A stretch of 64,000 nucleotides of DNA from Escherichia coli (GTDB taxonomy: Bacteria; Pseudomonadota; Gammaproteobacteria; Enterobacterales; Enterobacteriaceae): NCBI RefSeq assembly GCF_003019035.1, contig NZ_CP027448.1. One strand, 5' to 3'. Of this stretch, positions 26,017 to 27,884 are shown one piece after another. The notes below the pieces were generated by a model, which had not been told where the DNA came from, did not search any database, and was given only the letters and a program-made list of their open reading frames with translations. Each line of letters starts with the position of its first letter. The stretch's first letter is position 1. The position numbers and the translations under genes are program-made.

Positions 26017-27255
26017 TTGCTGGGATATATGTTTGGAACTATAGAAAAAATCAAAACGGGTGATGATGTTCTGTCTGCCGTTATTCACCGTGTTGAATGG
26101 CTGTTTGATACATTCTCTTCTGTCTGCCTGTCTTTTTCCGGAGGAAAAGATTCCACAGTGCTTTTCCATCTTGTGGCTGATGTGGCCCGCAGGAAGAACC
26201 GTCGTTTCTCTGTATTGTTCATTGACTGGGAAGCCCAGTATCAGTGCACCATTGAACATATTCAGAAAATGCGGGAAATGTACCGGGATGTGACGGATAC
26301 CTTTTACTGGGTGGCACTTCCCCTGACCACGGTTAACGGTGTCTCGCAGTTTCAGCCGGAATGGATATGCTGGGAACCCGGTGTGACATGGGTTCGCCAG
26401 CCACCGGAAGAAGCTATTACTGATATGGAGTATTTCCCCTTTTATCAGTATGCCATGACATTTGAAGAATTTGTTCCCGCATTTTCTTCCTGGTTTGCCA
26501 GTAACAGGTGTGGAGTGGCAGTGCTGACCGGTGTCCGAGCAGATGAATCCCTCAACCGCTTTATGGGACTGGTGTCCCAGCGCAAACTGAGATATGCCGA
26601 TGATAAACCCTGGACTACGGCATCGCCTGAAGGGTTTTACTACACCATGTATCCGTTGTATGACTGGAAAGCCCGCGATATATGGATATATAACGCCAGG
26701 ACCCGTGCCATCTACAATCCCCTGTATGACCTGATGTACCGCGCTGGCGTGCCGTTACGTAACATGCGTGTCTGTGAACCCTTTGGTCCGGAACAGCGCA
26801 AGGGACTATGGCTTTATCATGTTCTGGAGCCGGAAACGTGGGGCCGAATGTGTGAGAGGGTGTCCGGTGCTGCCAGCGGAGCACTTTATGCCAACGAAAG
26901 CGGTGCCTATTTTGCCCTGCGTAAACGTATATCAAAACCAGCCCATCATACCTGGCGCAGCTATGCGATGTTCCTGCTGGATGTGATGCCGGAAAGAACG
27001 GCAGAACATTACCGTAACAAGATAGCTATCTACCTGCGCTGGTATCAGACCCGGGGATTCCCGGATGACATCCCGGATGAACAGGAAAATGACCTGGGGG
27101 GCCGGGATATCCCGTCCTGGCGACGTATCTGTAAGACACTAATAAAGAATGATTTCTGGTGCCGGACCCTCTCCTTCAGTCCGAACAAACCCCGGCACTA
27201 CGAACGTTACCTGCAGCGTATGAAAGAAAGGAGAAAGGAATGGGGGATTCTGTGA
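26017..27255 (+). CDS. PAPS-reductase-like protein (YbdN/IbrA-like, DUF3440-type)
   Basis: 412-aa ORF with PP-loop SGGKDS (LSFSGGKDSTVLFHL) near the N-terminus. Confidence 0.8.
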   Translation: MLGYMFGTIEKIKTGDDVLSAVIHRVEWLFDTFSSVCLSFSGGKDSTVLFHLVADVARRKNRRFSVLFIDWEAQYQCTIEHIQKMREMYRDVTDTFYWVALPLTTVNGVSQFQPEWICWEPGVTWVRQPPEEAITDMEYFPFYQYAMTFEEFVPAFSSWFASNRCGVAVLTGVRADESLNRFMGLVSQRKLRYADDKPWTTASPEGFYYTMYPLYDWKARDIWIYNARTRAIYNPLYDLMYRAGVPLRNMRVCEPFGPEQRKGLWLYHVLEPETWGRMCERVSGAASGALYANESGAYFALRKRISKPAHHTWRSYAMFLLDVMPERTAEHYRNKIAIYLRWYQTRGFPDDIPDEQENDLGGRDIPSWRRICKTLIKNDFWCRTLSFSPNKPRHYERYLQRMKERRKEWGIL

Positions 27256-27884
27256 CACCGGAGGTGGAAGTATTGAGCAACATGATTCGTCAGTATTTCA
27301 GTCAAGTGCGAACTGATTCAGAAACCATACAGGCTCTGAATCATCTGCGCAGAGTGCTTCATGAGGTCAGTCCTTTTGCACAGGAGCCTGTGGACTGCGT
27401 ACTGTGGGTGAAAGCGGATGAGGTGGTGGCCAACGATTATAATCCTAATGTCATGGCGCCAGGTGAGAAGAAGTTACTCAAACAGTCTCTGGAGAAAGAC
27501 GGTTTCACACAACCAGTGGTTGTGTCGGAGGAGAAGAACCATTACCTCGTGGTGGATGGTTTTCATCGTCAGCTGCTGGGCAGGGAAGCAGACACAGGGA
27601 AACGCTTTAAGGGCTGGCTACCTGTAGCCTGTATTAATCCGGAGAGAAAGGGACAGGCATCACGTATTGCTGCGACCATTCGACATAACCGGGCCAGGGG
27701 GAAAAATCAGATAACCTCAATGTCTGATATTGTCAGAGACCTTTCGCGCCTGGGCTGGTCAGATGAACGAATTGGCACTGAGCTGGGTATGGACCGGGAT
27801 GAAGTGCTGAGACTGAAGCAGATTAGCGGGCTGATAGAATTGTTTCAGGAGGAGGATTTCAGCCCTGCGTGGACGGTCCGTTAA
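27240..27884 (+). CDS. ParB-like nuclease domain protein (YbdM/IbrB-like)
   Basis: ParB N-terminal-domain features (...YNPNVM...; ...VVDGFHRQ...); ATG at 27240 with AAGGAGAAAGG RBS, overlapping the upstream gene by 16 nt. Confidence 0.75.
   Translation: MGDSVTPEVEVLSNMIRQYFSQVRTDSETIQALNHLRRVLHEVSPFAQEPVDCVLWVKADEVVANDYNPNVMAPGEKKLLKQSLEKDGFTQPVVVSEEKNHYLVVDGFHRQLLGREADTGKRFKGWLPVACINPERKGQASRIAATIRHNRARGKNQITSMSDIVRDLSRLGWSDERIGTELGMDRDEVLRLKQISGLIELFQEEDFSPAWTVR

Follow-up and report, generated by a model that had tools for sequence, protein, structure and literature searches.

The DNA analyzed here, referred to as the window, is a 64,000-nucleotide stretch of the Escherichia coli contig NZ_CP027448.1 (assembly GCF_003019035.1), and the system under study is a pair of genes within it, ibrA and ibrB. 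Two overlapping open reading frames (ORFs) were recovered on the plus strand at the positions given by an earlier reading of the sequence (the original prediction), which had assigned them to a translationally coupled gene pair of the YbdN/YbdM or IbrA/IbrB type. This assignment was borne out by the comparisons: IbrA is 58% identical to K-12 YbdN over 405 aa and 91.6% identical to the product of a gene annotated as IbrA in Escherichia phage PhiR5_2, and IbrB is 55% identical to K-12 YbdM. It is nearly certain that the pair is a mobile-element paralogue of K-12 YbdN/YbdM. The coupling was also seen, with 16 nt shared by the two genes and the start of ibrB lying behind a GGAG ribosome-binding site. 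Overlaps of 16–28 nt were observed in the enterobacterial homologues, and small gaps or overlaps in most of the loci from other phyla, lengths that may be overestimates because the ORFs were called from the first start codon. The first product had been described as a PP-loop protein of 412 aa; its SGGKDS motif is present, but this length was not retained. It depends on an alternative TTG start at 26017 in the program ORF list, which adds four codons. Similarity to other alleles begins at about 26027, and on plasmid p3RM8082 the homologous RefSeq gene begins at the ATG equivalent to 26029, so the start of ibrA was set at 26029, giving 408 aa.

The ratio of nonsynonymous to synonymous substitution rates (dN/dS), calculated against seven alleles, ranged from 0.05 to 0.10 for ibrA and from 0.05 to 0.16 for ibrB, and every family-invariant residue is present in the IbrA and IbrB of the window. 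Judged from these ratios and residues, both genes are functional and kept by strong purifying selection, and the window almost certainly holds an intact plasmid allele of the IbrA/IbrB module, one that looks expressed. The module is not new: it has been named since 2002 and is annotated in thousands of enterobacterial genomes, and p3RM8082 holds the same locus, annotated, at 99% identity.

The domains expected by the original prediction were recovered by profile searches in both proteins. IbrA matched the Pfam families PAPS_reduct (PF01507, 5.1e-17) and then DUF3440 (PF11922, 1.9e-33), both above their gathering scores, as well as phrog_2302 (3.6e-83). Its best PDB profile matches were CysD and flavin adenine dinucleotide (FAD) synthase, with folds in agreement, and IbrA has the fold of phosphoadenosine phosphosulfate (PAPS) reductase, flavin mononucleotide (FMN) adenylyltransferase and CysD with an intact PP-loop. 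Conservation was assessed over 52 diverse members, including the window protein, with identities of 26–58%. Invariant residues were R21, G39-K40-D41-S42, D66, E68, W115, W121, R170, E173, S174, P209, D217, Y233, R247 and R277, with S37 and G38 conserved in at least 90% of the members. Neither a conserved cysteine column nor a cluster of co-varying cysteines was found among these 52 proteins, one of which contains two cysteines in total; C249 is a cysteine in 29 of the 52, and position 96 is a cysteine in 46 but an alanine in both the window IbrA and YbdN. The catalytic cysteine of CysH sits in its C-terminal tail, in a motif of the ECGLH type. Mechanisms of the CysH, DndC and TtuA types were rejected because the 52 IbrA proteins carry no conserved or co-varying cysteines, an absence in the alignment that argues against both the thiol-dependent reduction of CysH and the iron–sulfur (Fe-S) sulfur insertion of DndC and TtuA. 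The NCBIfam models for CysH and CysD scored 23–34 bits on IbrA, with cut-offs ranging from 154 to 414 bits; the CysH models NF002537, TIGR02057 and TIGR00434 gave 33.6, 29.4 and 26.5 bits (cut-offs 154, 254.2 and 165.1), and the CysD models NF003587 and TIGR02039 gave 31.5 and 27 bits (cut-offs 195 and 396.6). IbrA would instead fit the adenylyl transfer of CysD and FMN adenylyltransferase, or activation by adenylation as in other PP-loop enzymes.

The C-terminal domain of IbrA (DUF3440, about 160 aa) is helical and is basic in 98% of the members, with a median net charge of +8.5 and a pI of 9.4, while the catalytic domain is neutral. No solved structural relative of this domain was found. By analogy, a basic appendage of this kind is the pattern of PP-loop enzymes with a nucleic-acid-binding domain, such as TilS and TtuA, which is suggestive and not proof.

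For IbrB, the only Pfam match was ParB_N with an E value of 0.0038, below the gathering cut-off. A profile built from 65 IbrB homologues reached the N-terminal domains of Noc and ParB at 5.9e-07, and the protein matched phrog_2159 at 4.1e-84. An AlphaFold2 model was obtained with a predicted local distance difference test score (pLDDT) of 85.1, in which the chain ends after a helix-turn-helix. The modelled structure matches the folds of KorB, ParB and sulfiredoxin (Srx), KorB being the closest, and its helix-turn-helix resembles sigma region 4 and those of KorA, KorB and VirB. IbrB is better conserved than IbrA, with 32–61% identity to the window protein across the 65-member alignment and the invariant or nearly invariant motifs N-x-Y-N-P-N, D-G-F-H-R, R-H-N-R-A-R-G and L-G-M-D-x-D-E-x-L-R-L-K-Q. 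Within the third of these, R151 is invariant and R148, H149, N150, A152, R153 and G154 are conserved in at least 90% of the members; going by the order of the motifs alone, it might be the equivalent of ParB box III. No ParA gene adjoins ibrB, the flanks of the pair being a VirK remnant and a fragment of IS110. In the 214 aa of IbrB, the matches were to ParB N-domains and helix-turn-helix folds, and a C-terminal dimerisation domain was not detected; on these two grounds IbrB is not a partition protein. The coordinates of all these features are listed in Table 1.

Table 1. Positions of the features of the ibrA–ibrB locus and its immediate flanks in the window.
Feature	Position	Strand	Remarks
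Disrupted VirK/YbjX (DUF535) gene	25061..25901	+	Upstream flank
Perfect 10-nt inverted repeat TGTTCATTGA-N8-TCAATGAACA	25939..25966	.	63 nt upstream of the ibrA ATG
ibrA	26029..27255	+	PP-loop ATP pyrophosphatase-like, 408 aa; TGA at 27253-27255
IbrA N-terminal catalytic domain, about residues 14-245	26068..26763	+	PAPS-reductase / FMN-adenylyltransferase / CysD fold
PP-loop motif SGGKDS, IbrA residues 37-42	26137..26154	+	Read from sequence
IbrA C-terminal helical domain DUF3440, about residues 246-408	26764..27252	+	Basic
ibrB ribosome-binding site GGAGAAAGGA (GGAG)	27230..27239	+	Within the 3′ end of ibrA; read from sequence
ibrB start/ibrA stop overlap, 16 nt	27240..27255	+	Translational coupling
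ibrB	27240..27884	+	ATG start; ParB/sulfiredoxin-fold and helix-turn-helix protein, 214 aa
IbrB ParB/Srx-type N-domain, about residues 49-135	27384..27644	+	
IbrB motif NDYNPN, residues 65-70		+	
IbrB motif DGFHR, residues 106-110	27555..27569	+	
IbrB basic motif RHNRARG, residues 148-154	27681..27701	+	At the ParB box III position
IbrB C-terminal helix-turn-helix region, about residues 158-201	27711..27842	+	
Truncated IS110-family transposase	27893..28228	-	Downstream flank; DEDD_Tnp_IS110, profile positions 2-104 of 155

The synteny of the pair was examined in a bacterial set, in which one genome per species was scanned to give 79 loci (78 with an IbrA ORF), and in a viral set of 80 contigs. 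The loci of the first set came from Enterobacterales, Bacteroidota, Firmicutes, Verrucomicrobiota, Alphaproteobacteria, Helicobacter, an actinobacterium and an Asgard archaeal metagenome-assembled genome; a close-homologue search with IbrB gave only sequences at least 74% identical, and the diversity was taken from the genome and viral loci. Of the 78 bacterial loci, 74 have IbrB next to IbrA in the same orientation, with IbrB downstream in all but one. The four exceptions include two loci cut by contig ends and a Bacteroides finegoldii locus that has no IbrB ORF despite room for one. A nearby IbrB on the same strand was also present in 71 of 78 viral loci, directly downstream of IbrA in 42 and upstream in 22, and 12 of these upstream cases were directly adjacent. 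The partnership of IbrA and IbrB is thus ancient and nearly obligatory. The adjacent upstream copies in viruses are mostly long forms of 312–416 aa (typically 375–400). Such long variants, encoded upstream of ibrA at one bacterial locus (L032:5787-6974) and in several viral loci (L107-L120 and L165), have a conserved C-terminal extension of about 190 aa with the motifs W-E-C-x-K-A-G-F-Y-E and W-L-G-Q-A-S-L-C, for which no Pfam or PDB match was obtained. No fusion of IbrA to a ParB domain was seen among the seven unusually long IbrA homologues and one long IbrB that were scanned, and one of the hits (P0243) carries an ABC_tran fragment that may be an artefact of gene calling.

When the neighbouring ORFs were clustered, one family besides the pair recurred: a protein of about 415–430 aa whose gene immediately precedes ibrA, in the same orientation, at 19 of the 60 bacterial loci outside the enterobacteria and at 23 of the 78 viral loci. 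It carries SNF2-rel_dom and Helicase_C domains and matches phage helicase families; this three-gene cassette with an SNF2-like helicase is absent from the window. In a Pfam scan of 281 neighbour proteins from the 60 non-enterobacterial loci, SNF2/Helicase_C was the only recurrent combination, none of the restriction-modification, toxin, cysteine desulfurase and phage structural families recurred, and most of the neighbours were housekeeping proteins. Among cultured phages, mycobacteriophage Jackstina has the pair next to its large terminase (ParB-like gp1, PAPS-reductase-like gp3 and terminase gp5), Flavobacterium phage FCV-1 has it between the genes for the large terminase and the portal protein, and a Streptococcus thermophilus phage has it after the lysis genes; on viral contigs it was also found near genes for a Sak4-type recombinase, helicase, amidoligase and DNA invertase.

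The module is widespread, and its recurrence on plasmids and phages, as proposed earlier, was evident. DNA at least 80% identical to the pair was detected in 2185 of 5426 complete E. coli genomes (about 40%), with 2553 of the 2703 matching places being chromosomal and up to 14 places in one genome. Between 587 and 709 plasmid records carry the pair, mainly from Klebsiella, Escherichia and Shigella; these include Klebsiella hypervirulence plasmids and Shigella plasmids, in several of which it is truncated, and it was found in phages of at least six bacterial phyla. RefSeq names the close pairs, whose DNA identity is 88–97%, ‘phosphoadenosine phosphosulfate reductase’ and ‘IbrB-like domain-containing protein’. 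In the enterobacteria, the copies consist of the two genes alone, set in island remnants or plasmid cargo and adjoined by acquired genes such as fimbrial, siderophore and autotransporter operons and perC-like genes. In the E. coli O157:H7 chromosomal locus L004 (7931-10134), a PerC-family regulator gene directly follows ibrAB. The IbrA family as a whole comprises 1835 clusters at 50% identity with E values up to 0.001, and 316 with E values up to 1e-30.

According to later papers that cite the original study (Sandt, Hopper & Hill 2002, J Bacteriol 184:3640, via PMC7649339 and PMC8065619), ibrA and ibrB, the genes of the IbrAB island, together activate eib, the prophage genes for immunoglobulin-binding proteins. 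Ibr stands for immunoglobulin-binding regulator, and this IbrA/IbrB pair is that of E. coli ECOR-9. In addition, adherence of Shiga-toxigenic E. coli to epithelial cells induces ibrB along with perC (PMC7649339). In K-12, the LysR regulator YbdO/CitR, encoded next to ybdNM, represses these two genes, and the citR gene is described as H-NS-regulated (PMC9068703). YbdM rose 29-fold when a resistance plasmid was carried and was called ‘completely uncharacterized’ in 2022 (PMC8764527). The original prediction considered the biochemistry to be unresolved, and full-text searching found no mechanistic study. Phage papers routinely read the IbrA-type gene as an auxiliary gene of sulfur or host metabolism, a reading that the sequences make unlikely for the IbrA subfamily.

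Our favoured explanation, which we put forward tentatively, is that IbrA and IbrB form a DNA-directed adenylating enzyme complex whose output in E. coli is the activation of silenced mobile-element genes. The two proteins would act as a single complex, to which IbrB would supply DNA binding, and probably a switch dependent on a nucleoside triphosphate (NTP), through its ParB/Srx nucleotide-binding fold and its helix-turn-helix. IbrB would position IbrA, which would draw on ATP for the adenylation of a substrate, either a nucleic acid or a nucleotide, where IbrB sits, and the SNF2-type translocase encoded upstream would assist in many phages and non-enterobacterial genomes. The outcome would be a changed state of the DNA that carries the module or is targeted by it, which in E. 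coli might show itself when horizontally acquired genes that are otherwise silent become active and in phages would probably serve their own DNA metabolism or establishment. A useful analogy for such a working might be CysD–CysN, in which a PP-loop adenylyltransferase is driven by a partner NTPase.

The DNA-directed role gains support from the SNF2 partner, the helix-turn-helix of IbrB, the basic C-terminal domain of IbrA and the DNA-metabolism and packaging genes that neighbour the pair in phages. Adenylation, as opposed to redox chemistry, is suggested by the invariant PP-loop, the lack of a conserved cysteine and the best matches to CysD and FAD synthase, and the module is best read as neither a sulfur-metabolism enzyme nor a Dnd-type phosphorothioation enzyme. 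The nucleic-acid role advanced in the original prediction thus gains support as a general idea, but the sulfur chemistry coupled with it is disfavoured, given that neither conserved cysteines in IbrA nor desulfurase or DndD/E genes among the neighbours were found. No orthology to a characterised metabolic enzyme pair was found either.

Comparison with the known systems places the pair closest to its annotated relatives. On each criterion that could be applied it belongs to the IbrA/YbdN and IbrB/YbdM families, and it failed those for CysH, CysD, DndC/SspD/BrxP, partition ParB and known defence systems. The IbrA/IbrB of ECOR-9 and the RefSeq ‘IbrB-like’ pairs have the same overlapping two-gene layout, domain content and location in prophages, islands or plasmids, a likeness established through annotated relatives; the copy in the window differs from them in being on an IncFII plasmid beside a K88-like fimbrial operon. 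K-12 YbdN/YbdM (b0602/b0601) share the architecture and Pfam domains, with a start/stop overlap of 28 nt; however, ybdNM is core-like and chromosomal, next to the LysR repressor gene CitR/YbdO, whereas the window copy is on a mobile element, lacks a LysR neighbour and is preceded by unrelated DNA. From CysH, CysD and the eukaryotic FMN adenylyltransferase, IbrA differs in its added basic DUF3440 domain and the lack of a conserved catalytic cysteine, and its partner is ParB-like in place of the CysN GTPase of CysD or the thioredoxin of CysH. With the CTP-dependent DNA clamps and regulators ParB/Spo0J, Noc, KorB and VirB, IbrB shares a ParB N-domain fold to which a helix-turn-helix is joined, but compared with the ParB clamps it is short, paired with an enzyme and without ParA, and no parS-like site turned up, although no systematic search for one was made. 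Sulfiredoxin, SbnI and the free serine kinase, phosphotransferases of the ParB/Srx fold that depend on ATP or ADP, are stand-alone kinases of small molecules or protein sulfinates with no helix-turn-helix, and IbrB has a phenylalanine where the GCHR motif of sulfiredoxin has its catalytic cysteine. The helicase of the Dpd system is of the SNF2 type. DpdA/DpdB, which act in 7-deazaguanine DNA modification, show that a base-modifying enzyme can depend on a partner ATPase of the ParB-like kind, encoded within helicase-containing clusters (PMC12839542), but DpdA is a homologue of tRNA-guanine transglycosylase and not a PP-loop enzyme, and queuosine-precursor genes were not among the 281 neighbours of IbrAB that were scanned.

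Several observations weigh against the adenylating complex. The motifs of the ParB pocket for cytidine triphosphate (CTP) are replaced in IbrB, NPxQPR by NDYNPN and GERR by DGFHR, and because of this replacement no ligand can be named for IbrB. The ParB/Srx fold also includes small-molecule kinases such as SbnI and the free serine kinase, so that a small-molecule pathway is possible. Outside the enterobacteria, the mostly housekeeping neighbours say little about function, and in K-12 the conserved chromosomal context of ybdNM under CitR, by the citrate-lyase genes, could point to a metabolic or regulatory role (PMC9068703). The eib phenotype could be indirect, and the basic C-terminal domain is compatible with nucleic-acid binding without proving it.

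A more far-reaching version of the DNA-directed adenylating complex, which we regard as unlikely, is an undescribed sulfur-independent machine for nucleic-acid modification. Here, IbrB loaded on DNA would deliver the PP-loop enzyme IbrA, free of conserved cysteines, with the help of SNF2 in many loci, and leave a covalent mark on the DNA (attached to a base, or to the backbone by way of an adenylated intermediate) that permits escape from silencing or restriction. If this were true, thousands of phage ‘PAPS reductase auxiliary metabolic genes’ belonging to the IbrA subfamily would be mis-assigned.

Among the rivals, the one that survives best, though still rather doubtful, takes the module for a pure transcription-factor pair. 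IbrB would be a VirB/KorB-like anti-silencer acting against H-NS-type silencing and IbrA an accessory that makes or senses a nucleotide ligand, with no modification involved. Control of transcription by ParB-like proteins has precedents in KorB and VirB, and the modelled likeness of IbrB to KorB, together with a helix-turn-helix like those of KorA, KorB and VirB, would suit this role, as would the activation of eib by ibrA and ibrB reported in the papers cited above. The enterobacterial copies further adjoin acquired virulence operons, namely fae in the window and saf/afa-like, iro/fec, iuc/iut and perC/cah elsewhere, and the repression of K-12 ybdNM by CitR, from a gene described as H-NS-regulated (PMC9068703), points in the same direction. 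However, IbrA retains every residue of the PP-loop catalytic type across phyla, which would be costly for a mere accessory, the copies in lytic-type phages lie by packaging genes and the SNF2 helicase, where anti-silencing of islands makes little sense, and the canonical CTP-binding motifs of ParB are not conserved.

A reading that overlaps our DNA-directed model, and that we consider improbable as a separate explanation, is anti-restriction or establishment, in which the phage or plasmid that carries the module would have its DNA modified by it and so evade host restriction or other defences after entry. The anti-defence role allowed for in the original prediction might take this form. Many phages and plasmids carry the module, and its viral neighbours are typical of establishment regions (a helicase of the family phrog_62, with a profile of 1881 positions, an amidoligase and a DNA invertase). 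Phage ParB-like domains are often fused to DNA methyltransferases, and IbrB matches phrog_498; moreover, the ‘PAPS reductase’ genes of Clostridium prophages occur together with genes of the Mom-like and DarB-like kinds (PMC11318856). Against this, most of the E. coli copies are chromosomal and in island remnants (the 2553 of 2703 places given above), many bacterial copies sit among housekeeping genes, and the pair of the window belongs to the cargo region beyond the IncFII repA. No modification has been reported, and K-12, which carries ybdNM, is not known to have any DNA modification.

The original prediction had also allowed for a role in defence, and this fared poorly; that the module is an anti-phage defence system carried by mobile elements is now quite improbable. 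Its location in islands and plasmids agrees with such a role, an ‘anti-phage transmembrane ATPase’ is annotated about 5 kb away on p3RM8082, and a 2026 preprint lists clusters with a PAPS reductase among candidate PANGU-like defences; in these clusters, which are predictions only, the PAPS reductase is paired with a nucleoid-associated protein, in one case with Arc- and ParBc-domain proteins. Yet PADLOC-DB 2.0 gave weak, partial matches only for IbrA (BrxP at 1e-07 over residues 30-100; DndC at 2.9e-04 and 2.5e-03, no stretch passing alone) and none for IbrB, no defence families recurred among the 281 neighbours of the 60 loci, the module is frequent in lytic-type phages by terminase and portal genes, and neither protein has an effector-like domain (nuclease, toxin or membrane protein).

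Even less probable is a minimal phosphorothioation-type system like Dnd, Ssp or BREX type 4, with IbrA in the place of DndC/SspD/BrxP and IbrB as a DndB-like protein or nickase. The layouts are alike in that a PAPS-reductase-superfamily enzyme is combined with a ParB-superfamily protein, to which DndB is assigned in a comparative analysis (PMC12839542), with a helicase in some loci and presumably with DNA as the target, and the PADLOC matches of IbrA were to BrxP, in the PP-loop region only, and to DndC. These similarities are weak and partial, though; IbrA has no conserved catalytic cysteine or co-varying cysteine cluster for an Fe-S centre, IbrB has no PADLOC match, and cysteine desulfurase, DndD/E and SspB/C genes neither recurred among the 281 neighbours nor occur in the flanks of the window.

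The weakest reading, a true sulfate-assimilation enzyme or auxiliary metabolic gene (PAPS/APS reductase), or for IbrB a plasmid partition ParB, can be dismissed as highly improbable: the database name ‘phosphoadenosine phosphosulfate reductase’, the PHROG category ‘moron, auxiliary metabolic gene’, the sulfur and host-metabolism reading in phage papers and the records that name IbrB a ‘ParB/RepB/Spo0J partition protein’ all speak for it, but the CysH and CysD scores far below cut-offs, the lack of a conserved catalytic cysteine, a DUF3440 domain and an obligate ParB-like partner foreign to CysH, and an IbrB with neither an adjacent ParA nor a detected C-terminal dimerisation domain speak against it. 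The partition ParB was ruled out by the flanks, with no ParA, by the length of 214 aa and by DGFHR and RHNRARG standing in place of the CTP motifs GERR and ENLQR.

The pair is common and strongly selected, and the database label ‘PAPS reductase’ is probably misleading. If the DNA-directed reading is true, the module would represent a new kind of enzyme among the means by which mobile elements control or protect DNA, and this would explain how IbrAB switches on silent virulence-associated genes. The cross-phylum synteny, the SNF2 partner, the absence of conserved cysteines and the basic orphan domain are the results that could guide experiments; for the window itself, little is added beyond correct annotation.

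The pair is carried by a conjugative E. coli plasmid of the IncFII group with a K88/F4-like fae operon; the repA of this plasmid lies at 31.7-32.6 kb of the window, with ibrAB in the cargo region beyond it. From fae to ibrB, the sequence shares 99.2% identity with p3RM8082, a plasmid of a cattle isolate, with no differences at 24700-26058. A total of 69 substitutions relative to this plasmid fall inside ibrAB (26115-27839), mainly in four patches (26115-26215, 27264-27363, 27608-27677 and 27812-27839), and this mosaic pattern suggests recombination or gene conversion between ibrAB alleles. The pair had been placed between a fimbrial operon and insertion-sequence debris, and it indeed has the fae operon and a VirK remnant upstream and an IS110 fragment downstream. 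In the remnant, 25413-25901 matches positions 124-279 of 281 of the DUF535 profile (2e-46), the N-terminal part being in another frame, and the identical DNA of p3RM8082 is annotated as VirK/YbjX plus a partial coding sequence; the same order, VirK or DUF535 followed by ibrAB, was observed on other plasmids. The p3RM8082 equivalent of the downstream fragment is annotated as an IS110 family transposase.

Upstream of ibrA, the perfect 10-nt inverted repeat listed in Table 1 occurs once in the window, with 0 occurrences expected by chance, and elsewhere among 171 loci only in p3RM8082, which makes it specific to this plasmid lineage. A second palindrome, CTGCAT-N3-ATGCAG, is located at 25994-26008 and is common to the upstream region of a Salmonella Berta plasmid copy. 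Either palindrome could be an operator. A conserved operator was not found, as the regions upstream of ibrA are unrelated between contexts except for about 75 nt common with the Salmonella plasmid, and a promoter and terminator scan gave sites that were no more frequent than in shuffled sequences, none of them usefully placed.

Three consecutive ORFs for minor fimbrial subunits of the K88/F4 type, each of about 263–265 aa, were located at 22093-22887, 23115-23912 and 23916-24707, and their p3RM8082 equivalents are annotated as a hypothetical protein, FaeH and FaeI, respectively. They close a fae-like operon at its 3′ end, and this operon accompanies virK and ibrAB on several plasmids of E. coli and Shigella boydii. 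Beyond the IS110 fragment, a psaE/psaF-like regulator pair is encoded by overlapping ORFs on the minus strand (28696-29836): the ORF at 29180-29836 encodes a ToxR-like regulator, in which a winged helix-turn-helix (Trans_reg_C, 3.8e-13) is combined with a hydrophobic segment, and that at 28696-29235 encodes a protein of the PsaF family (3.1e-17). In Yersinia, PsaE and PsaF control the pH6-antigen fimbriae, and the pair found here may be a regulator of the nearby fimbrial genes.

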